Counted from the first letter of the stretch, positions 1-52,680 are shown. The stretch: DNA of 64,000 nt from an uncultured cyanobacterium (GCA_963719515.1 CAVRCJ010000001.1:223153-287152); one strand, 5' to 3'. Made by a program: numbers and translations. The notes: generated by a model from the letters alone, not told the origin.

Positions 1-985
1 CGACGTCAGCGCTTCCCGCTGATTGATCAAATAAATGCTGACTAGCGTAATTAAAACCCCTGCCCACTGGATTCCGCTGAGGCGCTCCCTTAAAAACAGG
101 TTGCCGAACGCCAGGGCAAAGATAGGCGTGAGGAACGTCAGCGAAGTAAAGCTGGTGAGGTCGCGGCTAGAGGCAAAGTAGAAAAACAAACCGTAAGCTG
201 CAGCGCTACCCAAGATAGAGGCGTAGCTGAGGGCCAGCCAGTCAGAGCCAGTGAGCTGCTGCCAAGGGGCTGCCTCACTCCACAGAGAGAGCCCCGCAAT
301 CACCACGCCCCCCAAAACCATGTGCCAGCCCGTAGCCATCACCGGGTCGCAGTGGCGGCAAACGTAGCGTACCATCACCGTCCCTACCGCCATAGACAGC
401 GCCGCCATGAGCATCAGCCACTCGCCGCTGCCCAACAGTTTCTCAAACAGCGGCCCCGCCGCCTCGCTCAAATGGCTCAGGGATAAATGACTTGAGGGGA
501 AGGCCTGCAGTACAGCGCCGTCTAGATGGCGAAGGGCCTCTAATCCAGACTCAAACCAGGCGTCAGGAAGCCCCAGCAGGCTAATTCCCAACACGCCCAA
601 CACAAGCCCCGCAGCCCCTACAACCCCAATCAGCTCTCCAAATAAAAATCGGGCCATCAGCGCCACGGCGATGGGCTGGGAGTCAATCATCACCGAGCCC
701 AGTCCGGCTCCCGTACGCACCAGGCCCAGCGCCAAAAAGCCCTGAAACAAAGCCCCGTCCACCAGCGCAAACAGCATTACCCACAGCCAGGCTCGCCAAC
801 CCGTCACCGCCGGGCGGCCCATGAGCCAGGCGACCAGCAGCACGAGCAGCCCAGCCGGTAGAAGGCGCAGGGTGGCCACGAATAGGGGAGCGGTGTGGGG
901 CAGGGCTCCCTTCATGGCTACCATTGCCGTTCCCCAGAGAAAGAATGGCGCGATGAGCAGCAGAGATTTGGCCTGTGAAAGCATA
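1..985 (-). CDS. DMT/EamA-family membrane transporter (partial, 3' end beyond window start)
   Basis: Reverse-strand open frame from the ATG at 985 (MLSQAKSLLLIAPFFLWGTAMVAMKG...) runs off the window. It is strongly hydrophobic with Gly/Ala/Leu-rich helices typical of 10-TM EamA transporters. It is absent from the ORF track because it is truncated by the window edge. Confidence 0.6.
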
Positions 986-32628: not shown

Positions 32629-32790
32629 CTTCCTCCTCGTGCCTCCTCCATAAATTTTCTATTCATTTTTGTAGGATCTCTTGATGAGAAACTCTGAAAT
32701 ATCAGCGTCCCAATGACCTGAGTTAACATAACGCTATATGCAAAAATAATAACCACTTAGCTATTATCTCAACTGGAAGAAAGCGGCATA

Positions 32791-33020: not shown

Positions 33021-33022
33021 CC

Positions 33023-33103: not shown

Positions 33104-33159
33104 GGAGTCCTACATCCACTACATCCACGAATTCATCCTATTGCACGGCGATCGCCCCA

Positions 33160-33365
33160 CAGCAGAACTCCAGAACAAGCCAGCAGAACTGCCGAGTCGG
33201 TCTACAGAACTCCCAAGCAGCTCAACAGAACTCCCGAGCAGCATTTTAGAACTCCTGAGCAGGTCAGCAGAACTAGCGAGCAGCACTACTCAACTCATTA
33301 GCAGCTCAACAGAACTCCAAAGCAACAATTTAGAACTGCTAAGCAGGTCAACAGCACTCCTGAGC
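33160..33365. repeat. ~10 tandem 21-bp repeats (cagaactcc.gagcag.....)
   Basis: Visible periodicity. Homologous array at 54836-55045 is in a different reading frame, so it is not protein-coding. Confidence 0.6.
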
Positions 33366-33513
33366 CGCGATCGCCCCCCCAAAGCGATCGCCCTCCCAAA
33401 GCAGAAAACCATCCCCACCCTCTTGCCAAGCCGCGCACAAATGTCCTACCTTATGGAGCTATGAGCCACAACCCATGGTTCTAGTCTCCCAAAGATTCGG
33501 TCTGGGCGGAGCC

Positions 33514-33535
33514 GCATGTTGTATGCGCAACATGC
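33514..33535. other. conserved hairpin GCATGTTG-n6/7-CAACATGC in module leader
   Basis: The stem is identical and the loops differ (tatgcg / ttgatcc / tgacac) in the three module copies (33514, 35689, 55157). Confidence 0.5.
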
Positions 33536-33674
33536 AGCCCCTAAGCCCCCACGACAGACACTGGCTGTCGGGAACGGCCTGGAGTAATGATATTACCCGG
33601 CCATCCCAAAACCAAAAACGTCGCGGATGTCCGGTCGGCGGGGGGCTCCAATTAACTCAAAAACGGAGTCCCTC

Positions 33675-34022
33675 ATGACAACTCAATATCATTCGCTGCC
33701 TCCCAAGGCGGCACAGTTCGCAGCGCCCCAAAACCCCGCTGCGGAACCCGCAGCGCTGCGGTTAGACTCCCCCATGGAAGCCGAACCCGCTATCTCCACG
33801 CTGATTGAACCCTCCCCAGCGCCGGGCTGCGAGCATTTGCGCCACATCATCATCGGCTCCCCCGAAGGCGTGCGCCAAGCCATCAACCGGCTGCACGTGC
33901 TGCAGTACGTCGAGTGGCGGCTGTGGACCCCGCTGATTGCCATCGGCGAAAAAGGCGTCCACATCACCCCCACCCAAGGCCAAGTGCTCAGCTACCTCAT
34001 CCAGCAGCGGCCTATTCAATAG
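33675..34022 (+). CDS. conserved hypothetical protein, module copy 1 (115 aa)
   Basis: MTTQYHSLPP...CEHLRHIIIGSPEGVRQAINRLHVLQYVEWRLWTPLIAIGEKGVHITPTQGQVLSYLIQQRPIQ. A GGAG ribosome-binding site lies 7 bp upstream. Paralogues are at 35851-36198 and 55317-55691. Confidence 0.6.
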   Translation: MTTQYHSLPPKAAQFAAPQNPAAEPAALRLDSPMEAEPAISTLIEPSPAPGCEHLRHIIIGSPEGVRQAINRLHVLQYVEWRLWTPLIAIGEKGVHITPTQGQVLSYLIQQRPIQ

Positions 34023-34119
34023 CTAGCCCCAGTACTTCACAAAATACTCTGACTGCGATTTAGGGAGGGGAGGAAAGGGGGTAGAGTCAGGCTACCTAAA
34101 ATCGAACTTTAGCCATGTC

Positions 34120-35443: not shown

Positions 35444-35850
35444 TGTGGGCTAACTATATAACCAACACCTATTCAATAACACTCTACTTTCCCAAATCTT
35501 ATCAAGCAATTCTGCTAAGTAGTACTATTATATCTTTTGCGATCGCCCCCCAAAAGCGATCGCCCCACACCACACCACAAAAAACCGCCCCACCCTCTTG
35601 CCAACCCGCGCACAAATGTCCTACCTTATGGAGCTATGAGCCACAACCCACGGTTCTAGTCTCCCAAAGATTCGGTCTGGGCGGAGCCGCATGTTGTTGA
35701 TCCCAACATGCAGCCCCTAAGCCCCCACGATAGGAGTTGGCTATCGGGAACGGCCTGGAGTAATGATATTACCCGGCCATCCCAAAACCAAAAACGTCGC
35801 GGATGTCCGGTCGGCGGGGGACTCCAATTAACTCAAAAACGGAGTCCCTC

Positions 35851-36198
35851 ATGACAACTCAATATCATTCGCTGCCCCCCGAGGCGGCACAGTTCGCAGC
35901 GCCCCAAAACCCCGCCGCGAACCCATCCACGCTGCGGCTAGACTCCCCCATGGAAGCCGAGCCCGCTATCCCCACCCTCATCGAGCCCTCCCCAGCGCCG
36001 GGGTGTGAGCACCTACGGCACATCATCATCGGCTCCCCCGAAGGCGTGCGCCAAGCCATCAACCGGCTGCACGTGCTGCAGTACGTCGAATGGCGGCTGT
36101 GGACCCCGCTAATTGCCATCGGCGAAAAAGGCGTCCACATCACCCCCACCCACGGCCAAGTGCTCAGCTACCTCATCCAGCAGCGGCCCATCCGATAG
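35851..36198 (+). CDS. conserved hypothetical protein, module copy 2
   Basis: About 85 percent identical to copy 1. It follows the same leader and hairpin (35689-35711) and a degenerate attI-like stretch (35450-35520). There is no integrase remnant and no 21-bp repeats. Confidence 0.6.
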   Translation: MTTQYHSLPPEAAQFAAPQNPAANPSTLRLDSPMEAEPAIPTLIEPSPAPGCEHLRHIIIGSPEGVRQAINRLHVLQYVEWRLWTPLIAIGEKGVHITPTHGQVLSYLIQQRPIR

Positions 36199-36282
36199 CC
36201 GTCGGAACGACCCGCGATCGCCCCCAGAGCCGCCCACCTGGCCTCTAGGCGGCGATCGCCACCCCATCTCCTGCTCTGATAT

Positions 36283-38058: not shown

Positions 38059-38840
38059 GTGCCAGACGATGACTCCCGAGGCTGCTTGCGCTTGAGCGCC
38101 AACGTCTCCTACGCCCAAGCAGCAGATGACGTGGAATACCTCATAGGGGTTCGAGTTGCTGCTAAGACTCAGCAGCGCATCGTGCAACGCCAGGCGTTTT
38201 GCCCTCCTGCAAGGCAGCAGCTTAAAGAAGTTAGCGTCGACGGCGGGAAAGTGCGGCTGAGAATAGCGCTAGGAGAGCCTTGCAGATGGAAAGACTACAA
38301 AGCAGTTGACACTGATGAGGGTGTTGTCGTGGCCAGCTACCGGGACAACGCTACCCTGACGCAGTGGGTCAGCAACCGCTCTCAGCGCCTTTGACGGCTC
38401 TAGGCAACGGGCATGACGGGGTATGAAATATCGTCAGCCAGATGAGCACCTCAGACCAAAGGCGTGAGATTCTCGACTGGTATCACCTGGTGGAAAACCT
38501 GCACAAGGTGGGCGGCTCTGTCAGACGGCTCAACCGAGCCGAGGCCCTGCTATGGCAAGGAAAGGTAGATGAGGCTATAGCACTATTCGTTGGCCTTAAG
38601 CGCCGGGAGGCAAAGAACTTCTACAACTACTTGTGCAAGCATCGCCACCGCATCATCAACTATCACTACTACCAGCAAGAGCAGATTTGCTCTATTGGTT
38701 CTGGGGCTGTTGAGTCAGCTATCAAGCAGGTAGGCCGCAGAGTCAAGATCTCAGGAGCGCAATGGAACGAAGAGAACGTCCCTCAGGCGCTGGCGCATAG
38801 GCGCGCTTATCTCAACGGCCTGATTGGTTTACAAAGGTGA
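38059..38840 (+). mobile_element. ISKra4-like transposase fragments (two ORFs, internal and C-terminal pieces)
   Basis: ...VSVDGGKVRLRIALGEPCRWKDYKAV..., ...ILDWYHLVENLHKV...; 5' part is missing. Confidence 0.45.
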
Positions 38841-39719: not shown

Positions 39720-40199
39720 TTAGGAAGCGATCGCTTCGACTGGAAACTGAACTTCCACCACCATTTCTCCCTTATGGCCAGGCTCCGGTGGCACAATAAA
39801 GACCTCTCGACCTGGTCCAGTTAGTCTGTATTGATGGTTTTCTGCCCAGGTACCAATGGCGCTGTAAGAGAGATGGCCATTTTCAGGGCCCCCAAATCGC
39901 ATAGCCGTCACCGCCGTGGAAACGGCAGGTAATTCTCGGACCTTCATCACGGCATCTTGGGAGATGGTAACGGTGAGATCGAGACTTTGATTGAGCGAGA
40001 AACCAAACTCCAAGTCCTAGTTAGACTCTTCATACAGCTCTCCATGGATCACCGCCGCAAAACGCCCCAATGCTTTAGCTTCAACCTGCTCGGCCACCGC
40101 CTGTCTCATTTGGGAGATGGCAGCGAGGGCTTCAGTCAAGTCGCTGCAGGTGCGCCGCAGTGAGAGAAATGGTTGGGCAGGCAGGCTTTTCAAGACCAC
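39720..40199 (-). pseudogene. GyrI-like small-molecule-binding domain protein, split into two frames
   Basis: ORF 40017-40199 (N-terminal half) and 39720-40013 (GPGREVFIVPPEP...EMVVEVQFPV) are separated by a frameshift. Confidence 0.45.
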
Positions 40200-40411
40200 A
40201 TCGTCATCTTGAAATCGATATTACGGCTCGGACTCGGTTCAGCAATTACGAGCGGTTGGGGGTGCCGGAACTTTGGCGCTTTGACGGCACTGGCTTGGAA
40301 ATCTATGTGCTGCAGGAGGGGCGCTACACTCGCTCAGGCGAGAGCGCTCAGTTCCCTGGCTTTGCCCTGCCGCAGGTGATTCCAGAGTCTGTAGCGCAGA
40401 GTAAGACGTAG
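40160..40411 (+). pseudogene. Uma2-family endonuclease C-terminal fragment
   Basis: ...FSNYERLGVPELWRFDGTGLEIYVLQEGRY... matches the C-terminus of the intact Uma2 gene at 45126. Confidence 0.45.
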
Positions 40412-40625: not shown

Positions 40626-41045
40626 ATGTCAACCAACGACACGCCTCAGTCGAATCGCTCTGTTCAGGTTGGCGGCAGCGTCACCGGCAGCGCCATCACG
40701 ACCGGAGACAACAACACAGTCTCAGTTCAGTTTCAGCCCGCCTCGCTGCCTCAACCAGAGACGGTTAATATTCAGGCAGAACTCAAGGCATTGCAGGCCA
40801 TTCTAGTCAGCCTAGATGACCCGATTGCCACTGGCGTGGCTCAGAAGCTGGAAGTGGAGGCGAGCAAGCCCAAGCCGGACAAAAGCGTTGTGGAGACGAC
40901 GCTAGAAACTGGGTTGACCTATGCCAAGAACCTATCGGGGTTTGCCGAGGCGATGTCTAAGCTGCAGCCCCACGTTGAGGCAACGGCGAGCTGGCTAGGA
41001 AAGCATGGCTATAAGCTGCTGCCTTTAGTTGGCCTGGCCCTTTAG
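40626..41045 (+). CDS. hypothetical protein sharing an N-terminal Gly/Ser-rich motif with the downstream NACHT-WD40 protein
   Basis: SVQVGGSVTGSAITTGDNNTVSV compares with the N-terminal SAVGSAIVSGSGNTVYV of the NACHT-WD40 protein. Ends 36 bp before that gene. Confidence 0.45.
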   Translation: MSTNDTPQSNRSVQVGGSVTGSAITTGDNNTVSVQFQPASLPQPETVNIQAELKALQAILVSLDDPIATGVAQKLEVEASKPKPDKSVVETTLETGLTYAKNLSGFAEAMSKLQPHVEATASWLGKHGYKLLPLVGLAL

Positions 41046-41080
41046 CAGCTTGAGGTGATCCGTATTAACCGAAAATTTCC

Positions 41081-44000
41081 ATGACTGACCCGTCTGACCA
41101 GAGTATCCGCATTAACGAAAGCGCTGTGGGTAGCGCCATTGTGTCTGGCAGCGGCAACACCGTCTATGTCATCCATCAAGCGCAGGCGCGGCAGCAAGAC
41201 CCGGTGCAGTCTGATGGTGGTGCTGGGCGAGCGTCTACGCAAATTGGCCCTAACCCCTACAAAGGGCTATCCGCCTTTCAAGAGCAAGACGCCGATCGCT
41301 ACTTTGGCCGGGAGGCGCAGGTGGCGCGGCTCTGGCAGCGGTTTCGTGAGCTGTATGAACAAGCCAATCGAGAGGATGCGCCGCCGCGATTTTTGCCTAT
41401 TTTGGGGCCTTCGGGCTGCGGGAAGTCGTCTTTGGCGCGGGCGGGGCTGATACCGGAGCTGGCCCGGCAGGCGGGGCAGATCGCTAAGGAAACCCTGCGG
41501 GTGGCGGTGCTGGTGCCGGGAGAGTCGCCGCTGAAAGCCTTGGCCGGGGTGCTGGCGAGGCTGACGCAAGATGACCAGACGCCAGAGGTGATCAAGAAGC
41601 GCAGCTACGAAAAAGACCTACGAGAGTCTGCTGCTGAGGGACGGTATGACTTTTTGCAGGACGTTGCCGAAACGCTATCCGATATCCACGTGACGCCGCT
41701 GGTGGTGCTGGTGGACCAGTTTGAGGAAATCTACTCGCTATGTAAAGACGCCAGCGATCGCCATACCTTTATCGAAACGCTGCTGCAGGCGGCGAGCAGC
41801 GCCACGGGCTACGTCACCGTTGTCATTACCCTGCGCAGCGATTTTTTGGCCGAAACCCAGCGCCACCCGCAGCTGAACCAAATCATTGGCTCTGACCGCA
41901 GCGTGATTGTGCCTGCGATGTCGGAGGCGGAGCTGCGGCGGGCGATCGCCCAACCGGCGATTCAGGCGGGGCATCCGCTGGATGATGCCGTGGTGGATTT
42001 GTTGGTGAAGGATACGGAGGGGCGGGAGGGGGCGCTGCCGCTGCTGCAGTTTGCCCTGACGCGGATTTGGGAGGGGCTGGGAGACGGGAAGACGGCTGCG
42101 GAGACCTACCGGGAGATGGATGGGGTGGGCGGTGCCCTGGCGGGGAAGGCGCAGGAGATTTATGACCGGCTGCCGGAGGCGGAGCAGGCGATCGCCCGAC
42201 GGGTGTTTGTGGGACTGGTGCAGCTGGGGGAGGGGACGCGGGATACGCGGCGGCGGGCAGAGGTGGAAACGCTGATGACCAGTCGCGATAAGCCGGAGGC
42301 AGTGAAGCAGGTGATTGGTCAGTTTTCGTCGCCGGGGGCGCGGCTGGTGACGCTGTCGGGGGAGGAGGGCCAGGGCGTTGCTGAGGTGACCCATGAGGCG
42401 CTGTTTGACCATTGGCAATTGCTGAATGACTGGCTGGATGCTAACCGCGACGATATCCGCTTTCAGCGGCGACTGGAGGCAGCAGCGGGGTATTGGGAGA
42501 AGCAGGGAAGGCCGGATGGGCTGCTGTGGCGGCCTCCAGATTTGGATTTGCTGCGGGGTTTTGCGCAGAAGGCGCAGCTAGACATGACCCCGCTGGCGAC
42601 TGACTTCTATGAGGCGGCAGATGCGGCTGAGCGGCAAGAAAAGCGGCGGCGACGGTTGAACCTCTATGGGTTGAGGGCTGGCTTAGTTGTTATGACAGTC
42701 CTCACCAGCTTTGCTGGATTCAAAGTCAACCAGGCTGGGCGCAGGCAAATGCAATATTACGCTGAGAGGGCAGAGAATCTCGGCAGTTCTGACCCACTCC
42801 GTAGCCTTGTCAATGGCTTAGCCGCCATCCAGCTCAGTCGTTCAACCCTTCTTAAAGCCCCGTTTGTCTGGCAGTCTTCGCGTTTCACCTCAGCCATTCT
42901 AGATATACCCAACCGAACAAAGCGCTTTGGTTATGGAATGGGCCATTCATCTCGGGTTCGTTCAGTTGCCATCAGCACCGACGGCCAGACCATCGTCAGC
43001 GGTAGCGATGATGATACGGTGCGGCTGTGGGACCGGCAGGGCAACCCCATCGGCCAGCCCTTCAGCCATTCATCTCGGGTTAATTCAGTTGCCATCAGCA
43101 CCGATGGCCAGACCATCGTCAGCGGTAGCGTTGATGGGACGGTGCGGCTGTGGGACCGGCAGGGCAACCCCATCGGCCAGCCCTTCGAGGGCCATTCATC
43201 TTGGGTTAATTCAGTTGCCATCAGCACCGATGGACAGACCATCGTCAGCGGTAGCTTTGATAATACGGTGCGGCTATGGGATCGGCAGGGCAACCCCATC
43301 GGCCAGCCATTCGAGGGCCATTCATCTGAGGTTAATTCAGTTGCCATCAGCGCCGATGGCCAGACTATCGTCAGCGGTAGCCGTGATAGAACAGTGCGGC
43401 TGTGGGACCGGCAGGGCAACCCCATCGGCCAGCCCTTCGAGGGCCATTCATCTTCGGTTAATTCAGTTGCCATCAGCACCGATGGCCAGACCATCGTCAG
43501 CGGTAGCTCTGATAATACGGTGCGGCTGTGGGACCGGCAGGGCAACCCCATCGGCCAGCCTTTCAGGCATTTAGATTCGGTTTATTCAGTTGCCATCAGC
43601 AACGACGGCCAGACCATTGTCAGCGGTGGCCTTGATAGAACAGTGCGGTTGTGGGACCGGCAGGGTAACCCCATCGGCCAGCCTTTCGAGGGACATTCAT
43701 CTTTGGTTAATTCAGTTGCCATCAGCAATGACGGTCAGACCATTGTCAGTGGTAGCAGTGATGATACTGTGCGGCTGTGGAACCGGCAGGGTAACCCCAT
43801 CGACCGGCCTTTTGAAGGTCATTTAGATTCGGTTTTGTCAGTTGCCATCAGCAACGACGGTCAGACCGTCGTCAGCGGCAGCAGTGATAGAACGGTGCGG
43901 CTGTGGGACCGGCAGGGCAGCCCCATCGGTCAGCTGCTTGAGGGACATTCAGATTCAGTTAGTTCAGTTGCCATCAGCAACGACGGCCAGACCGTCGTCA

Positions 44001-44791
44001 GTGGTAGTGTGAATGGAACGGTACGGCTGTGGGACCGGCAGGGCAGCCCCATCGGCCAGCCTTTCAGCCATTCGGATTATGTTCATTCAGTTGCCATCAG
44101 CAACGACGGTCAGACTATCGTCAGCGGTAGCACTGACAGAACGGTACGGCTATGGGACCGGCAGGGCAATCCCATTAGCCAGCCTTTTGAAGGCCATTCA
44201 TCTTCGGTTTTGTCAGTCGCCATCAGCAACGACGGTCAGACTATCGTCAGCGGTAGCATTGATAATACGGTGCGGCTATGGGATCGGCAGGGTAGCCCCA
44301 TCGGCCAGCCTTTCAGTCATTCAGATTCGGTTTATTCAGTTGCCATCAGCAACGACGGTCGGACCATTGTCAGCGGTAGCTTTGATAGAACGGTACGGCT
44401 GTGGGACCGGCAGGGTAACCCCATCGGCCAGCCTTTTGAAGGCCATTTATCTCGGATTAGGTCAGTTGCCATCAGCACCGACGGCCAGACCATCGTCAGC
44501 GGTAGCATTGATAATACGGTGCGGCTGTGGGACCGGCAGGGTAACCCCATAGGCCAGCCGCTCAAGGGTCATTCATCTTCGGTTATGTCAGTCGCCATCA
44601 GCACCGACGGCCAGACCATTGTCAGCGGTAGCTTTGACAAGACGGTGCGGCTGTGGCCTATATGGCTATCAAGTGGCTGGATTCCCTACACCTGCGATCG
44701 CCTCAAAGGATACCTGTTAGTCGTTGGCCAAACCGACGATGACGCCGCCCGCGAAGCCCTCCGAGCCTGCCGCCGCTACGCCTGGAAATAG
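41081..44791 (+). CDS. NACHT-family STAND NTPase with 14 C-terminal WD40 repeats
   Basis: Walker A ILGPSGCGKSSLARAG, and Walker B LVVLVDQFEEIY. A long helical region is followed by 14 WD40 units of the GHSS.V.SVAIS.DGQTIVSGS.D.TVRLWDRQGNPIGQPF type. Confidence 0.85.
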   Translation: MTDPSDQSIRINESAVGSAIVSGSGNTVYVIHQAQARQQDPVQSDGGAGRASTQIGPNPYKGLSAFQEQDADRYFGREAQVARLWQRFRELYEQANREDAPPRFLPILGPSGCGKSSLARAGLIPELARQAGQIAKETLRVAVLVPGESPLKALAGVLARLTQDDQTPEVIKKRSYEKDLRESAAEGRYDFLQDVAETLSDIHVTPLVVLVDQFEEIYSLCKDASDRHTFIETLLQAASSATGYVTVVITLRSDFLAETQRHPQLNQIIGSDRSVIVPAMSEAELRRAIAQPAIQAGHPLDDAVVDLLVKDTEGREGALPLLQFALTRIWEGLGDGKTAAETYREMDGVGGALAGKAQEIYDRLPEAEQAIARRVFVGLVQLGEGTRDTRRRAEVETLMTSRDKPEAVKQVIGQFSSPGARLVTLSGEEGQGVAEVTHEALFDHWQLLNDWLDANRDDIRFQRRLEAAAGYWEKQGRPDGLLWRPPDLDLLRGFAQKAQLDMTPLATDFYEAADAAERQEKRRRRLNLYGLRAGLVVMTVLTSFAGFKVNQAGRRQMQYYAERAENLGSSDPLRSLVNGLAAIQLSRSTLLKAPFVWQSSRFTSAILDIPNRTKRFGYGMGHSSRVRSVAISTDGQTIVSGSDDDTVRLWDRQGNPIGQPFSHSSRVNSVAISTDGQTIVSGSVDGTVRLWDRQGNPIGQPFEGHSSWVNSVAISTDGQTIVSGSFDNTVRLWDRQGNPIGQPFEGHSSEVNSVAISADGQTIVSGSRDRTVRLWDRQGNPIGQPFEGHSSSVNSVAISTDGQTIVSGSSDNTVRLWDRQGNPIGQPFRHLDSVYSVAISNDGQTIVSGGLDRTVRLWDRQGNPIGQPFEGHSSLVNSVAISNDGQTIVSGSSDDTVRLWNRQGNPIDRPFEGHLDSVLSVAISNDGQTVVSGSSDRTVRLWDRQGSPIGQLLEGHSDSVSSVAISNDGQTVVSGSVNGTVRLWDRQGSPIGQPFSHSDYVHSVAISNDGQTIVSGSTDRTVRLWDRQGNPISQPFEGHSSSVLSVAISNDGQTIVSGSIDNTVRLWDRQGSPIGQPFSHSDSVYSVAISNDGRTIVSGSFDRTVRLWDRQGNPIGQPFEGHLSRIRSVAISTDGQTIVSGSIDNTVRLWDRQGNPIGQPLKGHSSSVMSVAISTDGQTIVSGSFDKTVRLWPIWLSSGWIPYTCDRLKGYLLVVGQTDDDAAREALRACRRYAWK
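42927..44650. repeat. 14 tandem 120-bp repeats (WD40-coding) with very high nucleotide identity
   Basis: Each repeat recurs almost base for base, and differences cluster at 4-5 codon positions per unit. Confidence 0.8.
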
Positions 44792-45125
44792 CGATGCGCC
44801 GATATGGGCAAACTGGCGATCGCGGCAACTACTTAATAAGAACACAGGACAGAATCAATCTCGCCTAACCCAAACGGTAAGCGCCTTGCGCCAAGGGCGA
44901 TCGCGATCGCTAAAATCTAAAGAAAGGTAAGGCCAAGCTTGCAGGCAAAATCAGTGCATTCCAGGGTCTAGACCCCATCGCTTGGCAGCAGCAAATTAGA
45001 GGTGAATGGGATGACACCAGACTATCTGATTGATACCAACATCCTAATTTTGCTGTTCAACAACCAGCTCACCGAACCAATCCCCGCCGGAGAGCTAGCC
45101 TACTCAATCATTTCTCCCCGCTCCT

Positions 45126-45701
45126 ATGGTTGCCACCCAAAACTCTCCCCAGCTCACCCCCAACGAATACCTCGCCTGGGAACCCCAACAGTCTCAAAAC
45201 TACGAATACATCGACGGCCAAGTCTACGCCATGGGCGGCGGTAGCGTTAACCACAGCCGCATCGCCGTCCGCCTCACCGCCCTCCTCGACAACCATCTAG
45301 CAACCACCGACTGCATCACCGGCAACTCAGACCTGAAAGTCAACATCGCCGAAACAGACAACTACACCTACCCCGACCTCAGCGTCACCTGCGACAAGCG
45401 AGACCAGGCCACTACGCAATACATCACCTATCCCTGCCTAATCATCGAAGTGCTCTCAGAGAGCACCGAAGCCTATGACCGAGGTGGAAAGTTCCGCCTC
45501 TACCGCAAAAATCCGGTTCTGCAAGATTATCTCTTGGTTAGCTCCACCCGCATCGAAATCGACCTTTATCATCAAAACGAAGCAGGCCAGTGGATTATCC
45601 TCAACTACCAGCCTGGCGACACTGTCGAACTCAAAAGTATCCAGCTCAGCTTCCCTATTGAGCAAATTTATCGTGATCTCGCCCTTGCCACAGATAAATG
45701 A
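45126..45701 (+). CDS. Uma2-family (DUF820) restriction-endonuclease-like protein
   Basis: ..NYEYIDGQVYAMGGGSVNHSRI.., ...YPDLSV.., ...LIIEVLSESTEAYDRGGKFRLY... matches the PD-(D/E)xK-like Uma2 pattern. Confidence 0.75.
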   Translation: MVATQNSPQLTPNEYLAWEPQQSQNYEYIDGQVYAMGGGSVNHSRIAVRLTALLDNHLATTDCITGNSDLKVNIAETDNYTYPDLSVTCDKRDQATTQYITYPCLIIEVLSESTEAYDRGGKFRLYRKNPVLQDYLLVSSTRIEIDLYHQNEAGQWIILNYQPGDTVELKSIQLSFPIEQIYRDLALATDK

Positions 45702-46040
45702 TACCGCTGGCGAAATATTTTGTAATCGAGTTGCACGCTTTCGAGGCCCCCTAACCCCCAATTCTGGGGGAACCGGAGCAGTGGCCATACTATTCGCGGC
45801 TATTGCCTTTAAGGAGTTCTAACCTCTCTGAAGTCCTCTCAATTGGGGGATTGAGGGGGCCTTCTCCGGGGCAGGAAATAGCCGAGATGTAACAAGACAT
45901 GAAATTCGCCAGCGGTATCAATAAATGATAGAAGAGGCTGCTTTACAAGTCTCCCTGTAGAATAGTGAAGCTTTTCAAACGCCCTCTAAGCGAATCTTGC
46001 CGAACTGAAGCGATTTTCGCCATCTTACTGGCTGAAGCAA

Positions 46041-47315
46041 ATGCAAAAGATCGTCATTGTCGGCGCTGGCCCAGCGGGACTCTTGCTCGCCCACTATCTT
46101 CTAGCGCGGGGCCGCTACCACATCGAGCTCTACGATCGCCGCCCCGATCCCAGGCAGGTCGACTTATCCAGCCAGCGCACCTACCCAATCTCGCTGCAGC
46201 TACGCGGCATGACGGCGATTCGCGCCATCCCTGGGCTAGAAGACCGGCTTACCGAGCGCGGCGTTTGGTCCCAGGGCTCACTGATGCACCGCAAATCCGG
46301 CGCGCCGCGAAAGATAAACCGCAAGACGCCGCTGCTGCTGATCGACCGCAACCAGCTGGTCTTGGCCTTGCTGCGATCGCTACTAGAAACTTACGACGAC
46401 GGCAGCGTAGCCATTCGGTTCGACTGTCCCTGCACCGCCGTCGACCTCAAGGCCCAGAGCGTCACCTTCCAGCCAGCAGGCCCTCCCGTCACGACCCGTT
46501 TCGATCGCCTCGTCGGGGCAGATGGGGTGCGATCGCAGGTGCGCGACGCGCTGGTAGCGGCGGGCAAACTGCAGTGCGAGCAGGCGCTAATCCCCGACGC
46601 CTACCGCTCCCTGTTTGTCCGTAGGACCAGTTCTGATAAAGCTTTGGCGGAAGACCGGGTTCACGCCTGGTTCATGGGGCAGGACACCCGGACGGTGATG
46701 GCCCCTCAGCTCGACGGCTGGCTGCACGGAACCTTTGTCTTTCCCCGCGATCGCGATCCTTTGGCATCTTTCGAGACCGCAGAGGCGGTCCTTGCCTACT
46801 TTCAAGCGGCCTGCCCCAGCCTAGGACAGCTGATGACCCTTGAGGAGGCCGACGCTCTTCGGCAGCGGCCCGCGTCAACCATCACGACGGTGCGCTGCGA
46901 TCGCATGCATGTGGGCGATCGCGCGCTGCTCATTGGCGACGCGGTCCACGCCGTTTCTCCTGCCATTGGACAGGGCTGCAACGCCTCGCTACAGGACGCC
47001 ATGGTGTTCGCACAGATGCTAGAGCGCTACGACGACGATTGGCGTCAGGCGCTACCGGCGTTTACCGCCCAGCGACTGCCTGATGTTCATGCGCTGCGGG
47101 AGCTGTCGGACTACAGCTTCCCTCGCTCGGCTCGCCTCAGGGTGGAGTTCATTTTGCGCCTCACGTTGGGAAAGCTGCTGCGCCGACGGCTCCCGCAGTT
47201 TGCTAAGCCGTGGCTGAAGCCGTTGCCCATGGAGCTAGTCATGGACAGCGACCTTTCTTACGCTACGGTTCTTGGGCGAACCCAGGGCTGGATTGAGCGG
47301 GTGAAGCGGGCTTAG
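46041..47315 (+). CDS. FAD-dependent monooxygenase (UbiH/KMO-like)
   Basis: N-terminal MQKIVIVGAGPAGLLLAHYL (GxGxxG) and C-terminal DRALLIGDAVHAVSPAIGQGCNASLQDA. Confidence 0.8.
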   Translation: MQKIVIVGAGPAGLLLAHYLLARGRYHIELYDRRPDPRQVDLSSQRTYPISLQLRGMTAIRAIPGLEDRLTERGVWSQGSLMHRKSGAPRKINRKTPLLLIDRNQLVLALLRSLLETYDDGSVAIRFDCPCTAVDLKAQSVTFQPAGPPVTTRFDRLVGADGVRSQVRDALVAAGKLQCEQALIPDAYRSLFVRRTSSDKALAEDRVHAWFMGQDTRTVMAPQLDGWLHGTFVFPRDRDPLASFETAEAVLAYFQAACPSLGQLMTLEEADALRQRPASTITTVRCDRMHVGDRALLIGDAVHAVSPAIGQGCNASLQDAMVFAQMLERYDDDWRQALPAFTAQRLPDVHALRELSDYSFPRSARLRVEFILRLTLGKLLRRRLPQFAKPWLKPLPMELVMDSDLSYATVLGRTQGWIERVKRA

Positions 47316-47422
47316 GCGAGGGGGGATGTGACCGACCATGGGTTGGCTACAGCTCGGGTCGCGTGAGCGTTACCGGGCCGCATGAAGTGATTGTGGTTTG
47401 CAGTGGCGGTCAGGTGGATTCT

Positions 47423-47680
47423 CTAGGCACGATGGATTTGGGATTTCCGCTGGGTTTGGATTCGGAACGCTCTGAATCTCGATGATGAATCGGTATCAAC
47501 TCGTAGAATGTATTCCGCTAGGGGTGGCTTGAGGTGAGATGCCTCGGTAGCGAGCTCCTGTTCTAGCTGTGGGGGCAAATCCAAAGTGATGTTCACGGCC
47601 ATGCTCTCCTGCGACAGCTCTATTCTATTACTGCGCAAATTTCTGCGGGCTGACCTATGCAGAAGGAGGCTACCGCACAA
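47423..47680 (-). CDS. small hypothetical protein (possible ribbon-helix-helix-like, weak)
   Basis: A likely internal start gives MAVNITLDLPPQLEQELATEASHL. It overlaps the attC-like site at 47675. Confidence 0.25.
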   Translation of the reverse strand: MCGSLLLHRSARRNLRSNRIELSQESMAVNITLDLPPQLEQELATEASHLKPPLAEYILRVDTDSSSRFRAFRIQTQRKSQIHRA

Positions 47681-47760
47681 CGGTGAAGTGCAGCGGCGGC
47701 AGGCAAGCTTGAACGCTCACCGATAACCTCTGTACCGTCCGCACCAACGAAGTGTTAGGT
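47675..47760. repeat. attC-like imperfect palindrome (GCACAACggtgaagtgcaGCGGCGG ... CCGTCCGCaccaacgaagtGTTAGGT)
   Basis: Clear sequence similarity to site at 50549 (CTAACgttgaagctgaGCGGCGG ... CCGTCCGCTC..GTTAGGC). Confidence 0.5.
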
Positions 47761-47765
47761 GGCTG

Positions 47766-48119
47766 CTATTGATCTCGGTAACTTTTCGCATAATACAGAC
47801 AACCAATAAGACTACTTGCTCCTTCTGCAGCTGCTAAACACTCATAGCCTGTTTCATCCTGCGTAAAGTGTAGTTCAACTTTATTGACAAAGGTTCGCAA
47901 ACCAAGCAGAGCTTCTTCAATCTTTTCTTTAGTAATACTCAATAATGGTTCTGGATGATCTTGAAAACAAGTTTTTAGATCTGTATGAGCAACCCGACGG
48001 TTCCTATGCTTTCTTGCAAAGTCGCAGCTATTCTTTATGATCTCTAGCGTTTCTACCAACTCTGCTTTCAGTTGAACCAATGATATAGCAATCCTGTTTG
48101 ATTTATGGAAAGGAGCCAT
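47766..48119 (-). CDS. hypothetical protein (117 aa), 5' end abuts/overlaps the IS630 element
   Basis: The ORF-track frame 47766-48293 runs into the IS630 transposase gene in another frame. An internal ATG at 48119 gives MAPFHKSNRIAISLVQLKAE... Confidence 0.3.
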   Translation of the reverse strand: MAPFHKSNRIAISLVQLKAELVETLEIIKNSCDFARKHRNRRVAHTDLKTCFQDHPEPLLSITKEKIEEALLGLRTFVNKVELHFTQDETGYECLAAAEGASSLIGCLYYAKSYRDQ

Positions 48120-49160
48120 ACCTGTGCAGTTTGGGGAAATCGAAAGTATCCAACCTGAAGAACTGCTCAAACAGGGCTTTGAGTGCCGGAAACGATGGAC
48201 ACAACCCAGACATCCGCCTAAGCCAGGTCTTGCCTTGAAGCCAAGCATCTTCAATCGGGTTCTGAGTCGGGTCATTGGGGGCAAAACGAACACAGTGAAT
48301 CTTCCATTCTTCTTGCGTAAGCCCCTCGTTCACCTGGGCTAGATACTCCTTAAGCTCGCCAGAGCGATGATAGCTGGCCCCATCCCAAAGAATGAGTAAC
48401 CGCTGGTGGGGAAACTGAGCTTGTAAAGACTTCAGGTAAGCAATGGTACAAGCGGTGTTGCCCTTCTCATGCGCTTCGATAAATAACCGCTTGCTCACTA
48501 GGTCCACTGCCCCGTAGTAGGTTTGGCGCTCTCGCTCATTGACAACCGGCACTACCACCCGCTCATCAGTTCGCCCCCAAACATATCCTTGTAGGTCACC
48601 GCTCAGAAGGTGACACTCATCAAAGAACAGCACCCTCAGCTGCCCTTTGGCAATCGCCTCGCGGTAGAGCGCCAGCAGAGCGCAGATTTCGGCTTTTTTG
48701 CTGCCACCGCCTTAGCGTCCGCCTTGGGGTTGACCTTGCCGCTCTTCTTCCAGCTGATGCCAGCAGCCTCAAACAGGTCGTAGTAGCTTTGCTTCGACTC
48801 GTAGGCCACATCGTACACCTCAGCCAAGTGGTGCTCCAATTCGCTCAACTCCCAAATCGCCTTTTGCTGTAACCAGCTCAGCACCGCTGCCTTCTGCTGG
48901 GTCTCTAGATAGCTTTTTCGGCCCTTGTGCTGGGGCTTAAAGCCAGCTACGCCCCAGCTTTCGTAAGCTTGTTTCCAGTTGCTCACGGCTCCCATCGATA
49001 CATCGAGTATCCCGACGATCGCCTCATACCTATAGCCTTGGTAGAACAGCTTCACCGCTAGTGCCTTTTTCACTTGCCTGCCATCTCGTTGTTGACGGAT
49101 GAAGGCTTTGAGCTCCTCCACTGCAGCAGTTTTATTAGGTTTAGCGGGTGTCGTTAGCAT
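48103..49160 (-). mobile_element. IS630-family transposase (two ORFs joined by a putative -1 frameshift at A_AAA_AAG)
   Basis: N-terminal HTH ORF 48636-49160, and C-terminal DDE ORF 48103-48633 (FFDECHLL, LILWDGASYH, NDPTQNPIEDAW). The slippery heptamer aaaaaag at ~48690 puts ..AAKK/AEICALLALYREAIAKGQLRVLFFDECH in frame. Confidence 0.7.
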
Positions 49161-49310
49161 TGCTCAGGGCCTCTCAGTATCAGCGCTTTAGTCTCCTCCG
49201 TAATTATACTGGCCCTACTTCACGAATCACCTCGGATTGCTATAGGTCAACACTATCTAGTATTCTCGCTAAGGTTAAATTTTCTTTGTTGCCAGCTTTT
49301 GAAGAATCAG

Positions 49311-49541
49311 TTAAACGGCTAATTGACAAATTGACAAGATGATGTCATTCAAGAATACAGACTGACAAATACCAAAAAAAGTGGGGGCAGACTCATTTAG
49401 CAAATCAACTATTTCTTCATCTTCATATAATTGAGAAAACAAGAGCCATTTTAGATGTAGTTCTCCAAGCTCTTCCGAAATAGCTTGAAGCAATTCGTCT
49501 ATTTTCTGTGTCATTTTCTCAGCCTTTCGTCTTAAGATCAT
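49311..49541 (-). CDS. small hypothetical protein coupled (ATGA overlap) to the T5orf172-domain gene
   Basis: 76 aa, AT-rich, no motif. Confidence 0.35.
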   Translation of the reverse strand: MILRRKAEKMTQKIDELLQAISEELGELHLKWLLFSQLYEDEEIVDLLNESAPTFFGICQSVFLNDIILSICQLAV

Positions 49542-50395
49542 AGACCCATTTGTCGAATGTAATTTTGATCAGGATAAACATCTGGCTGTCCCATCCTTAC
49601 AACTCTATAAAATGCTTCATGAACTATTGCTGGAGGTTTATCATCAAAGCAATCACCAAAAGGAATTGGAAATCCATCAGGGTGTATTTCAATATCTTCC
49701 ATGAAGCCAATCATTTTGCCATACTGCCAACAATCAATGATACTAATTATTGAGAGTTCAGGCTCAAAGAGAGATAGTTGTTCGGAGCTAGATGTAAGCT
49801 TTGGTGAACCAATGATAACAACTCTATCGCCAGGATATGTGATTGTGACTTCACTGAGAGAGCCTGGAATGCAAGAATCATTTGCTAACTTAATTAAGCT
49901 TGAAGGATCATCTTCAGATCTAGTCGTAAGTAGTATATGATCTCGAGCCTTGCAACCCCAAAAATTAATAGGTTTAGGTTTATCAGCCAACCAATTTTCA
50001 TATCTAAACAGGAGAATAATTCCTTTTGAATAGCAAGTCCATCGGAATGTAGTGTTTACATCCAACCTATGAATTCCTGCATGAATTGAGGTTGCGCTTT
50101 TGTCAAATTCTTCATAGACAACTTCTTCGACAGCCGATATTGCTTCTTGCAGAGGTATCACAAAAAATTCTCGATTAGCCTTATATCGATACTTCTTTAA
50201 TTTTTGATGAATTAATTTTTCAGCTAAAACACAATCAGGGACATCTCTTTCGTAACAAATGCTAAATTGTTCAGGCAATCCTGTTGTAAACAACTCTTTT
50301 ACCCTTTCCCGCACATTCCGCTCTGTTCTCCCGATCTTAAGCATGTTCTCAGGTAGTACAGAATTTTGCAGAATGTAAACAGAACCCGCAGACAT
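49538..50395 (-). CDS. T5orf172 / GIY-YIG-like nuclease domain protein with unknown ~180 aa C-terminal domain
   Basis: N-terminal GSVYILQNSVLPENMLKIGRTERNVRERVKEL matches the T5orf172 pattern (YIL.N...KIG.T.R....R..EL). Confidence 0.55.
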   Translation of the reverse strand: MSAGSVYILQNSVLPENMLKIGRTERNVRERVKELFTTGLPEQFSICYERDVPDCVLAEKLIHQKLKKYRYKANREFFVIPLQEAISAVEEVVYEEFDKSATSIHAGIHRLDVNTTFRWTCYSKGIILLFRYENWLADKPKPINFWGCKARDHILLTTRSEDDPSSLIKLANDSCIPGSLSEVTITYPGDRVVIIGSPKLTSSSEQLSLFEPELSIISIIDCWQYGKMIGFMEDIEIHPDGFPIPFGDCFDDKPPAIVHEAFYRVVRMGQPDVYPDQNYIRQMGL

Positions 50396-50548
50396 TGAAT
50401 GCAGCCTCTTTTATGAACTGTGCTGGAGAACTCAGAGATACATCAATATATTTCCCAATTGAACGGATTCAGGAACAAGTCTTCAAATTATTCAACGTTT
50501 AAAGCTTACAGACAAGTTTCAAGGATGCCCTTGCCGAGGATTGAAGCC

Positions 50549-50633
50549 ACCTAACGTTGAAGCTGAGCGGCGGCCAATATTTTTGCACCGAGCCTGGATT
50601 GTAGATTCCGTCCGCTCCTGCATGAGGTTAGGC
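50549..50633. repeat. attC-like imperfect palindrome (ACCTAACgttgaagctGAGCGGCGG ... CCGTCCGCTCctgcatgagGTTAGGC)
   Basis: Outer cores are reverse complements fitting RYYYAAC / GTTRRRY. It lies downstream of the dynamin-like GTPase gene. Confidence 0.5.
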
Positions 50634-50790
50634 TGCCGAATTGGATATGTTGTCGGTGTCCGCATCAGGGACTATGTTAGGCTAAAAACACTTGCTTCAA
50701 GAACTCATAAGCATGTTGCGTTCTCAAAAATCTATCGATGCGGTAGTAAGAGCTACTGTAGGGAACGCAACCTACAAGATTGGCAGGCGC

Positions 50791-52680
50791 TTATGATCTA
50801 AGATCATTTGCACGACAACGAAGCCCTTCTACTGCATCAATAATTGTCTTTTGCACCTCACTGCTACCAACACGGATTGCTAGAGCAACAAGGTTTTGGT
50901 ATTTGTCAAGCCAGCCTTCCCATTCTTTGACATATCCCTCATAAGCATCCTCGTAGTCATGTAGAAGTTTACCTGCATGGCTTTGTTTGGCAAAATTAAT
51001 ATGTTGGTTGGATATATCTACAGCTGCTTTGCTACACCTATCGAGAGCCTCTAGCTTTTGCTGCGCTGCATCTTTGAGTATGGTATTACTTTGTGTAAGA
51101 TTAGTTGCATTACCAGAATCAAAGTCTAATTCGACTTCTCCGAGAGGCATTTGAATCGTAGCCTTCTCAAACATCGGTAATCCGATACTGCGATGCAGCC
51201 ACTCAAAGGGGAGTACTTTCTCAAGAAAAACACGGTGCTTTTGGGGCCTGAGATAAGAAATTAAGTTGTCGTCAAACTCGTAGTCAGTCCTATTACTTGG
51301 AATTTCAGGAATTGAAACCTCATCACGAATACCGAACCGCTCTTCAATCTCTTCAACCCTCACTTTCACTCGAGCAGCAACTGCGTCTGTCCTCTTTTCG
51401 AACACGATTCTCACACCTTCTTCGAGATTGGCCAAGTAGTTCTCTACTTTCTTATTAACAACTTGAGTCCCATACTCCTGAATATGCTGGAATAGCCGAT
51501 TCATGTAGCTCGCAGGTAGTTCCGATGGATTTGGGAAGGGTAAAGCAAGGTCACGAGGTTGAATTTTGGGGTACTGAAGGGCTTTGACAACCCCTTCATA
51601 TAGATGCAATTCCTTTATTTCTTTTGCATGTGCAGGGAGTTCCACTTGTGACAACTGAATGAGTCGTTCACACAACTTGAGAAGTACTTCTCGATCCTTT
51701 CTACATAGGACACCCAATGCGGAAAGAGAGTCAGCGACGCGCTCAAATGAGCCAGCCGCAGCAAAAACTCTGCTGTTGCCTGAGATGACTACAAAATCAC
51801 GAAGAATCTGAGTGAACTCGTACTTATCCTGCCACTTATTTAGAACTGAGCGGGCGGAGACTGCATATATACGAGCATCATTTGCATTTGCCCCACGATT
51901 TTGAAGCTTTTGAACAAATTTACGTTTCAGCTTCTCAAAATACTCAAGTGATGGATCTTCATCAGCCTTATTCACTATAAATATCGTAGACTTTAGGCGA
52001 TTTTGAAAGCAATCCGCCAATCCATCGAGACCTCCACTGCCTCTGATTTCAACCGAGTCAGAGTTGTTAAGGAGCACCAATGCGAGATCAGCTTTCTGTG
52101 TCGAGTATCTTTCAGCGAGTAACTGCTGGCGTTTGTTGCCCAAAGTGAATCCTGGAACATCTGCAAGATCGATACGCCGTAGGATATCTGTGGGAACACC
52201 CACAGTCACACCTTTGAGACGCTTAATATTATCACGGTTATACTCCTCATCAAGAAGGCTACGGAGATGCCTTTTTAGTTCAGAAGGATCAAGCCCTTCC
52301 AAGTGTATGGCGTGCTGTGGAATTTCTGAGGTTACTTTGAGCTCGTGCTCTCTAGAGAAACTAACTACTGCGGGAAAAGTTGTGCATGCCTCAACAGGTC
52401 CTTCGGGAAGCAAATTGTAGCCAAGTATTGCATTGATGAAGCTAGACTTACCGCCACCTCTGCCTCCAACAATTGCGACTAAAATCCGGCCATCAGCAAC
52501 ACGCTGAGCAGCTTCCTTTAAATCAGAAACGATTATGTCAGCTGCTGCTAATGTTGCCTTTGGCAAGCCCTCTGGAAGAATACTGCGGAAGAGTTCCTCG
52601 ATTTCGTGGGTTGCTGATTCAATTGTGCCAATAGCGCGCTCTTCTCTTTCTCTTTCTGTAAACTTTTGTGGTTGAGACAT
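50791..52680 (-). CDS. dynamin-like large GTPase
   Basis: G1 VGGRGGGKSSFINAILG, G3 LADVPGF, G4 IVNKADE, and a ~400 aa helical C-terminal region; AT-rich. Confidence 0.7.
   Translation of the reverse strand: MSQPQKFTEREREERAIGTIESATHEIEELFRSILPEGLPKATLAAADIIVSDLKEAAQRVADGRILVAIVGGRGGGKSSFINAILGYNLLPEGPVEACTTFPAVVSFSREHELKVTSEIPQHAIHLEGLDPSELKRHLRSLLDEEYNRDNIKRLKGVTVGVPTDILRRIDLADVPGFTLGNKRQQLLAERYSTQKADLALVLLNNSDSVEIRGSGGLDGLADCFQNRLKSTIFIVNKADEDPSLEYFEKLKRKFVQKLQNRGANANDARIYAVSARSVLNKWQDKYEFTQILRDFVVISGNSRVFAAAGSFERVADSLSALGVLCRKDREVLLKLCERLIQLSQVELPAHAKEIKELHLYEGVVKALQYPKIQPRDLALPFPNPSELPASYMNRLFQHIQEYGTQVVNKKVENYLANLEEGVRIVFEKRTDAVAARVKVRVEEIEERFGIRDEVSIPEIPSNRTDYEFDDNLISYLRPQKHRVFLEKVLPFEWLHRSIGLPMFEKATIQMPLGEVELDFDSGNATNLTQSNTILKDAAQQKLEALDRCSKAAVDISNQHINFAKQSHAGKLLHDYEDAYEGYVKEWEGWLDKYQNLVALAIRVGSSEVQKTIIDAVEGLRCRANDLRS

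Follow-up and report, generated by a model that had tools for sequence, protein, structure and literature searches.

The subject of this analysis is a pair of genes in a stretch of 64,000 nucleotides from an uncultured cyanobacterium (GCA_963719515.1, CAVRCJ010000001.1:223153–287152), the whole of which is called the window below. The larger gene (41081–44791, plus strand) encodes an nSTAND1-WD40 receptor of 1236 amino acids (aa), in which 14 WD40 repeats share a conserved scaffold and are hypervariable at four codons each. The smaller gene (40626–41045, plus strand) encodes a protein of 139 aa (GYKLLPLVGLAL) with a β-motif, a four-helix bundle and a hydrophobic C-terminal tail, and is separated from the receptor gene by an intergenic spacer of 35 nt (41046–41080, plus strand, as read from the sequence). 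An earlier account made from the DNA alone (the sequence-only reading) had placed a protein with 14 WD40 repeats at exactly the coordinates of the larger gene. This is borne out, the open reading frame (ORF) being intact between these positions and 14 units being obtained by dissection.

The P-loop NTPase module of the receptor (aa 59–479, 41255–42517, plus strand) is matched by the Pfam profile PF20703 (nSTAND1) with 381.9 bits (E 6.5e-114, cut-off 27.1), model positions 1–378 of 379 being covered. It carries the Walker A motif GPSGCGKSS (aa 109–117, 41405–41431) and the Walker B motif VVLVDQFEE (aa 208–216, 41702–41728). The NACHT assignment given in the sequence-only reading is ruled out by the Pfam scores, PF05729 reaching only 14.3 bits (E 0.038), under its gathering threshold of 26.7 bits. 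The receptor is a STAND NTPase, though not a NACHT in the Pfam sense; some of its database homologues carry the name "NACHT and WD repeat". The clade nSTAND1 was defined by Kaur et al. (2021) among the STAND NTPases of predicted counter-invader systems of multicellular prokaryotes (PMC8195603). Homologues of the receptor number 2834 at E ≤ 1e-10, and all named matches in the top 120 are cyanobacterial (40–63% identity), the best of them Nodosilinea- and Leptolyngbya-like. In the N-terminal 85 aa Pfam matches nothing except the start of nSTAND1, and no HET domain is present there. The C-terminal module is swappable: relatives with the same NTPase and the same hydrophobic segment behind it bear FGE-sulfatase, pentapeptide or M4 peptidase modules.

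The repeats form one array according to Tandem Repeats Finder (TRF; 42940–44656, period 126 bp, 13.7 copies, 85% matches). Dissection in codon register, anchored on VRLW, resolves 14 units of 41 or 42 codons each, from unit 1 (42944–43066) to unit 14 (44570–44656). Their measured length is 123 or 126 bp and not 120 bp, and the repeats, described in the sequence-only reading as almost base-for-base identical, have a mean pairwise DNA identity of 84.3% (76–93.5%), with a proportion of synonymous differences (pS) of 0.27 and a synonymous divergence (dS) of 0.34. The mean pairwise amino-acid identity is 81.5% (68–93%). Blades 1–5 and 13–14 form a tighter group (83–93% identical) than blades 6–12 (78–91%).

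The modelled array is consistent with two seven-bladed propellers on the plus strand, the first comprising units 1–7 (42944–43819; codon alignment, PF00400, AlphaFold and alignment to 2YMU) and the second units 8–14 (43820–44656; codon alignment and AlphaFold). PF00400 has 14 matches in the receptor (E 1.1e-153), and the DHSW tetrad is kept, with H1, S19 and W29 in 14/14 units and D23 in 13/14. In the AlphaFold model of aa 574–1236 (39 sequences, mean pLDDT 87.3) each unit comprises three full strands and short bridge residues at the position of strand D, and confidence dips at model residues 331–335 (aa 904–908), between the two propellers. The closest solved structure is 2YMU (WRAP), whose 14 blades pair one-to-one with those of the receptor (E 1.8e-160). 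The repeated units, the tetrad and the propeller fold together identify the receptor as a WD40 β-propeller protein. Its mean internal identity also exceeds the median of 60% that serves as the cut-off for highly repetitive propellers (PMC9218822). The very recent amplification typical of WRAP is not found, at least 37 synonymous changes separating the blades at the pS and dS given above; the array is not very young, because dS is 0.34.

For the comparison of units, the leading His of the tetrad was taken as column 1 of 42. The codon alignment puts the peak diversity at columns 4, 6, 22 and 24 (6, 7, 8 and 5 residue types, respectively; entropy 2.1–2.8 bits), in agreement with the sequence-only reading, according to which the differences are concentrated at the sites H-S/L-S/D-x-V-x-S and GS-x-D-x-T. 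The corresponding codons lie at +9..11, +15..17, +63..65 and +69..71 from the start of each unit. Columns 2 (S/L), 3 (S/D), 12 (T/N/A) and 41 are moderately variable, and 23 of the 42 columns are invariant in amino acid. Columns 4, 6, 22 and 24 hold 36 of the 72 non-consensus residues. Random placement of the variable positions, set beforehand as the outcome that would refute the pattern, is not seen: none of 100,000 multinomial simulations reached the observed clustering (maximum 27). The four-residue signature is unique in each of the 14 blades.

Selection on these columns was estimated by the method of Nei and Gojobori. The dN/dS ratio is 4.3 at columns 4, 6, 22 and 24, 1.85 at columns 2, 3, 12 and 41, and 0.08 at the other 34, values which are approximate, just four codons being compared between paralogous repeats with probable recombination. 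A lower bound that requires no tree also points to replacement: it counts 22 replacements or more in 9.5 non-synonymous sites and 37 or more silent changes in 30.4 synonymous ones (ratio 1.9). Selection is purifying on the scaffold and diversifying at the contact positions, and the pattern recurs in dozens of homologues: among 54 with an internal identity of at least 0.70, retrieved by shared words, columns 4, 6 and 22 rank among the top four in 96%, 89% and 89%, the sample being biased to similar repeats because it was retrieved by word sharing.

The position of the variable columns on the propeller was derived from the strands of the AlphaFold model and from a published sequence rule. Strands A, B and C correspond to columns 5–10, 16–21 and 25–30; columns 4 and 6 are situated where strand A opens, and the pair 22 and 24 is on either side of the tetrad Asp (column 23) in the B–C turn. 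According to Wu et al. (2012), top-face sites are marked by the bulge V/L/I-R1-R2-V/L/I and by the residue preceding the tetrad Asp; in a set of 29 WD40 complexes, R1, R1-2 and D-1 were those "generally required" for binding at the top face (PMC3419727). By this rule column 4 is R1-2, column 6 is R1 and column 22 is D-1, while column 24 is D+1; all four belong to the published hotspots, the residues that top-face binding employs most frequently. Strand positions and rule, rather than measured solvent exposure, thus agree with the earlier proposal that the variable positions are the ligand-contact sites of the top face.

Hypervariability of this kind could in principle arise by drift. A propeller recently amplified from one blade, as in the WRAP model, would drift apart, and its hypervariable columns would be merely the least constrained and carry no specificity code. 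Single-blade amplification is documented for STAND-linked propellers of cyanobacteria (PMC9218822), and the nearest neighbour of each of the 14 units lies inside the same protein: within-protein identity is 92.5% at 24 of 29 compared columns (columns 3, 4, 6, 22 and 24 being left out) versus 82% to the best other protein. A close relative (locus L003, 67% identical in the NTPase) has old, dissimilar blades, and the repetitive state is therefore lineage-specific; in addition, a diverged second allele, described below, shares the contact residues in 12 of 14 blades. Relaxed constraint, however, would bring dN/dS to about 1 at most, far from the ratio of the four columns and from its lower bound. 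The same columns are hypervariable in the 54 independent homologues and in the fungal HNWD genes, where selection has been tested formally, and at a dS which excludes a very young array the scaffold is still 92.5% identical. Drift is accordingly regarded as quite an unlikely source of the pattern. As to the origin of the repeats themselves, recent amplification and gene conversion both fit and cannot be separated by these data.

The sequence-only reading had further suggested rapid switching of specificity by recombination of repeats. The four-gamete test is failed by 90 of 153 informative site pairs (59%), which speaks for exchange between repeats; a PHI-like permutation test is marginal (p = 0.046) and the second allele is unshuffled, so the suggestion of rapid switching is weakly supported.

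This allele comes from another assembly (ENA ERZ25039505 contig_11211, locus L086), which is colinear with 30612–51073 of the window over 20.5 kb. The two are virtually identical except for two blocks, at 30.5–33 kb and 41.0–46 kb, the latter being the STAND gene with 1 kb downstream. Divergence in these blocks (30612–33000 and 41000–46000) is 2–5% and resembles that of recombined or imported alleles. The STAND genes differ by 94 substitutions, of which 61 are at third codon positions and 63 are synonymous (31 non-synonymous); being mostly synonymous, they represent real allelic divergence and not sequencing error. The small upstream gene is 100% identical. In the second allele the array is equally long, and its 14 units correspond in order to those of the window; its contact residues are identical in blades 1–12, with changes at column 24 of blade 13 (N to H) and column 22 of blade 14 (F to L). 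There is no sign of rapid reshuffling on this timescale, nor, in this lone second allele, of repeat-number polymorphism or exchange of the fungal type. The second STAND allele carries several frameshifts, and Halomicronema also has a split receptor copy; the frameshifts agree with earlier reports that such genes undergo pseudogenisation and turnover.

The second assembly also bears on the reliability of the array. Tandem repeats of 126 bp at 84% identity can be difficult for short reads, and the exact 1236-aa protein is absent from the protein collection, so that repeat number or order might be wrong through collapse or mis-joining. The independent contig has the same 14 repeats, and the collapse feared in the sequence-only reading is unlikely for this reason. 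The ORF is intact, its 14 units make up two propellers that pair with the blades of 2YMU, and the units differ enough (76–93.5% identity) for unique placement. An artefact of assembly is thus very improbable.

The variable codons could also be attributed to a diversity-generating retroelement (DGR). Of the four hypervariable consensus codons, three (AAT, ATT and AAT) are rich in A, and DGRs are known to diversify nSTAND1 receptors of other bacteria, there on C-lectin domains (PMC10907252). This candidate was rejected because the changes are not adenine-specific: A changes 1.77 times per site, C 1.68 times and T 1.58 times, and the hypervariable codons include changes of T (23) and C (7) too. 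Self-comparison of the window revealed no template repeat (no search for a reverse-transcriptase gene was made), and the pattern recurs in the 54 genomes and in fungi. The involvement of such an element is extremely improbable.

The second component of the pair is the small gene directly 5' of the receptor gene. A longer reading of 156 aa, starting at 40575, is called in one assembly. On scanning the 35-nt spacer, no promoter-like or convincing terminator-like site was found; predicted "terminators" fall within the ORF, five of six inside repeat units. Co-transcription of the two genes is probable.

The two proteins share a motif, located at aa 8–39 of the small protein (QSNRSVQVGGSVTGSAITTGDNNTVSVQFQPA, 40647–40742, plus strand; BLASTP and hhalign) and at aa 4–35 of the receptor (PSDQSIRINESAVGSAIVSGSGNTVYVIHQAQ, 41090–41185, plus strand), where it is conserved at the N-terminus of most homologues with the consensus RSIxIEESAVGSAIVSGDGNTVYVIxQ. 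The small-protein motif matches the receptor N-terminus by BLASTP with 40% identity over 35 aa (E 3e-5), and hhalign of the two motif alignments gives a probability of 98.2% (E 3.9e-14). In a collection of 1.84 billion proteins the motif profile finds only 72 representatives. Of these, 18 were inspected; all are N-termini or fragments of nSTAND1 proteins or belong to the small-protein family, and none has another effector architecture, save for two nSTAND1 proteins with N-terminal extensions. These, P0275 (911 aa) and P0262 (647 aa), have extra domains of ~325 and ~135 aa, respectively, before the shared motif, and that of P0275 resembles, by eye, a helical domain of the effector-associated type. 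A literature search for the motif strings found no paper.

The small-protein family comprises 146 detected proteins (59–83% identity), almost all of 133–143 aa; none of the 146 has a Pfam domain or an informative name. The gene is directly 5' of an nSTAND1-WD40 gene in Nodosilinea sp. E11 and Halomicronema and, by tblastn, directly 5' of an nSTAND1 gene at five further loci (L004, L009, L010, L014 and L016), the receptors of L009, L010 and L014 having non-WD40 C-terminal modules; in Gloeothece it is one gene away. At L009 and L010 a third gene (DUF4062-NACHT-FGE-sulfatase) also begins with the motif. At L036 a small helical protein with the motif at its C-terminus adjoins an nSTAND1 gene, a layout like that of Bell/BASS. 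In the structural model of the small protein the motif is disordered in the monomer and is followed by the four-helix bundle; such predicted disorder bears only indirectly on a putative amyloid-type behaviour of the motif.

Two to three tandem nSTAND1-WD40 genes are situated behind a single small-protein gene in Nodosilinea sp. E11 (L082) and at L005 and L058. These receptor copies have 10 to 15 units with internal identities of 0.64–0.81 and look like a locally expanding family of paralogues.

The identity of the small protein with the 5' component of EACC1 (Kaur 2020), a small protein with a conserved central transmembrane helix, followed 3' by a caspase-containing protein, was considered and rejected: there is no Pfam match at E ≤ 10 save a sub-threshold chance one, no central hydrophobic helix and no caspase.

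The surroundings of the pair are those of a cyanobacterial chromosome, as indicated by 77 HIP1 sites in the window versus ~2 expected; a ChlH/CobN Mg-chelatase gene is present as well. Defence-type or decayed genes in the window include Uma2, an AbiU2-HEPN fragment, an MmeI-type methylase fragment, T5orf172, a dynamin-family GTPase and DUF3800, and at related loci type I restriction-modification, PIN/PhD and HEPN/MNT genes adjoin the module. No tRNA gene marking the border of an island was found. HIP1 sites are absent from the region ~47000–54800, in which the T5orf172, dynamin-family GTPase and DUF3800 genes lie; its G+C content is 0.39–0.46 (at 48–54 kb) versus ~0.55–0.60 elsewhere, and it has the appearance of recently acquired DNA.

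Short ORFs at 38059–38840 and 39720–40411, close to the module on its upstream side, resemble gene remnants: two adjacent ORFs lacking Pfam matches, a GyrI-like C-terminal fragment of 97 aa, and an ORF of 83 aa (40160–40411), also with no Pfam match, which resembles a Uma2 C-terminal fragment by eye. They suggest gene decay immediately upstream of the module.

Several repeats occur elsewhere in the window. An element of ~0.9 kb is present in three copies (32784–34030, 35539–36199 and 54424–55698; 81–92% identical), each with 41-nt and 21-nt tandem repeats (TRF: 32914–33011, 33163–33365, 54543–54629 and 54849–54949) and each followed by an ORF of ~115 aa ending in RHIIIGSPEGVRQAINRLHVLQYVEWRLW. 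A direct repeat of ~235 bp (5691–6195, 89% identical) consists of tandem units of 52 nt in which the HIP1 palindrome GCGATCGC is abundant. The segments 13144–13345 and 46841–47042 are 84% identical over 200 bp, one of them being in an FAD-dependent monooxygenase gene downstream of the STAND gene; this similarity likely reflects a paralogous gene or fragment. A second STAND-type or regulatory cluster may be situated at 13684–16922, where a MalT-like TPR region is encoded by the ORF 15237–16922, behind two adjacent ORFs.

Two further features of the receptor concern its placement in the cell. A hydrophobic segment (aa 526–547, LNLYGLRAGLVVMTVLTSFAGF, 42656–42721, plus strand) follows KRRRR after the NTPase and is predicted from hydropathy to be a single transmembrane helix with the N-terminus inside. 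Its maximum on the Kyte–Doolittle scale (19 residues) is 1.47, as against a median of 1.79 in 113 homologues, 70% of which are at 1.6 or above. The residues K and R flanking it average 5.1 on the N side versus 2.5 on the C side, and the segment is kept in the relatives that end in FGE-sulfatase, pentapeptide repeats or an M4 peptidase domain. Behind the second propeller a helical cap (44657–44791, plus strand, AlphaFold and alignment; helices at model residues 621–662) carries two conserved cysteines (aa 1205 and 1230) and ends at the stop codon. In the 39-sequence alignment C632 (model numbering) does not vary, and conservation of C657 is 90% or higher. The hydrophobic segment, the charge bias, the retention of the segment in relatives with other modules and the cysteine pair of the cap suggest an N-in/C-out receptor with periplasmic propellers.

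The gene pair is interpreted here, with moderate confidence, as an NLR-like surveillance module made up of two genes in a filamentous-type cyanobacterium, situated in a variable, defence-gene-rich stretch of the chromosome. The two propellers could serve as the ligand sensor, the 56 contact positions (14 blades with four each) forming two individualised binding surfaces. The P-loop NTPase would be the oligomerisation module, and the hydrophobic segment probably spans the membrane. Binding of a ligand to the propellers would release autoinhibition, and the NTPase would then oligomerise and bring the N-terminal motifs together. The receptor motifs, once clustered, might recruit the motif of the small upstream protein or act as a template for it; the four-helix bundle and hydrophobic tail of this protein would provide the output, most plausibly at the membrane. 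New specificities may be gained mainly by point substitution at the contact codons, and exchange between repeats may contribute.

A number of observations weigh against this interpretation. PADLOC-DB v2 recognizes neither protein as a known defence system: the receptor matches only a HEAT-ARM candidate model, through its WD repeats, and, weakly through the P-loop, mad3 and mad8 (E 0.003–0.009), and the small protein has zero matches. In the fetched flanks of three close nSTAND1 relatives (L001, L003 and L007) no homologue of the small gene was found, and the partner is therefore not obligatory. The fold search with the small protein returned generic helix bundles only, with no Bell, HeLo or MLKL-like match. 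The motifs of cognate pairs do not co-vary (0.429 versus 0.448 for non-cognate ones in seven gene pairs, p = 0.98). An effector role of the small protein is suggested by gene order and the shared motif, and ligands and effector activities in the family are putative. Propellers placed in the periplasm, if the segment spans the membrane, would fit a sensor of phage proteins poorly. To these points may be added the approximate nature of the dN/dS values and the retrieval bias of the homologue sample noted above.

The topology opens the way to another explanation, a transmembrane signalling receptor not involved in immunity. Its NTPase would be cytoplasmic, its periplasmic propellers would sense envelope, neighbour-cell or environmental ligands (e.g., in kin or filament recognition), and the small protein would be a regulator or adaptor and not a killer. 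The conserved hydrophobic segment with its positive-inside charge bias, its retention in relatives whose modules are often of extracytoplasmic types (FGE-sulfatase/C-lectin, M4 peptidase C-domain) and the cysteine pair of the cap agree with such a function, as does the lack of matches to known defence systems. The topology, however, is derived from hydropathy alone, the segment of this receptor has the low score given above and contains an Arg, and it is conflict genes that are usually marked by diversifying contact residues, pseudogenised or split copies (in the relatives L085 and L086) and a defence-island neighbourhood, as here. Except for the origin of the ligand, this explanation overlaps with the surveillance module, and it is considered unlikely.

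A more elaborate scheme may be put forward very tentatively, as an improbable one: a transmembrane NLR-like receptor with cytoplasmic nSTAND1, one membrane helix and diversified periplasmic propellers, which would signal inward to the small protein by templated (amyloid-like or β-augmentation) pairing of the shared motif, a mirror image of the Bell/BASS and Bab/Agp switches. No such motif-templating transmembrane nSTAND1 receptor is described in the literature that was searchable.

With respect to the surveillance module, the small conserved partner gene with the N-terminal motif of the receptor is the less expected part. If its role is confirmed, it would offer a candidate output protein for the large, uncharacterised nSTAND1-WD40 family of cyanobacteria, and the place where receptor ligands originate would become a question; the hydrophobic segment may place the sensor outside the cytoplasm.

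Among known systems, the Avs/AVAST, bNACHT and Apaf-1 proteins have the same tripartite plan of N-terminal output, STAND NTPase and C-terminal repeat sensor that binds a protein ligand. Apaf-1 has two WD40 propellers too, and its structures match the receptor at about E 1e-46 to 1e-48. The receptor differs in having no PADLOC match to the Avs or bNACHT models and no fused effector domain, and a membrane-spanning segment is predicted before its sensor.

The nSTAND1 conflict systems of Kaur et al. (2021) belong to the same NTPase clade and are predicted to be sensors of invaders with adaptor-recruited effectors and a diversifying C-terminal sensor. The motif shared by the gene pair here recalls this adaptor principle. 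The described systems use effector-associated domains (EADs) or bacterial Death-like domains as adaptors and fused or EAD-linked enzymatic effectors, whereas the putative adaptor here is a short β-motif; the diversity here is in WD40 contact codons with no sign of a DGR, and there it is produced by a retroelement on a lectin fold.

In the Bell/BASS and Bab/Agp gene pairs of amyloid signalling (Dyrka et al.; Ibarlosa et al.), adjacent collinear genes likewise encode a large sensor and a small helical protein, which share a β-prone motif of ~30 residues rich in G, N, S and V at the sensor N-terminus. The adjacency (the 35-nt spacer) and the motif at the STAND N-terminus (supported by hhalign) are found here as well. 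The arrangement of the small protein is the mirror image, with the motif N-terminal and the hydrophobic element C-terminal; the motif is not attached to the C-terminus of a Bell/HeLo-like membrane-targeting domain, and the fold search returned neither Bell nor Bab. The screen for BASS was limited to NB-ARC and NACHT partners.

WD40 propellers that arose by recent amplification were described on STAND ATPases of cyanobacteria by Dunin-Horkawicz (2014) and by Pereira and Lupas (2022), and a role in innate immunity was proposed for them (PMC9218822). WRAP, the propeller pair of Npun_R6612 of Nostoc punctiforme (2YMU), likewise belongs to a cyanobacterial STAND ATPase with 14 look-alike C-terminal blades in two propellers, and its main variable site (Trp/Arg) corresponds to column 6. 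Its blades are practically identical, with no synonymous changes, and stem from a very recent amplification, unlike those of the present receptor, with their synonymous divergence and unique signatures. The operon partner of Npun_R6612 is described as a TIR-STAND protein, whereas here it is a small motif-bearing protein. Hu et al. (2017) noted that in highly repetitive WD40 proteins, of which half are bacterial, conservation is broken only at predicted hotspot sites (PMC5587647).

The HNWD proteins of Podospora anserina (HET-D and HET-E) likewise consist of a STAND NTPase and of WD40 repeats that are strongly conserved among themselves. In their repeats codons 7, 9, 25 and 27, which flank the conserved codons 8 and 26 on the interaction surface, are strongly positively selected (PMC1805685). 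The 2-16-2 spacing of these codons is identical to that of columns 4, 6, 22 and 24, so that the parallel with fungal NACHT-WD40 incompatibility genes drawn in the sequence-only reading is exact in register, and four diversifying surface codons arranged in pairs, with the elevated dN/dS given above, are found in the bacterial receptor as well. The fungal proteins join NACHT to a HET effector domain, while the bacterial one joins nSTAND1 to an N-terminal motif region of 58 aa; repeat-number polymorphism and exchange between loci are seen in Podospora and not between the two alleles here. Diversification of the top face on a homogeneous scaffold, together with this fungal parallel, is well supported. 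The pattern of hypervariable contacts is already documented in cyanobacteria and fungi, and this gene adds one example to it. It gives in numbers the same four-codon signature of diversification in a bacterial STAND-WD40 receptor as in fungal allorecognition receptors, and supports a design of conserved scaffold plus hypervariable contact residues common to prokaryotic and fungal NLR-like proteins.

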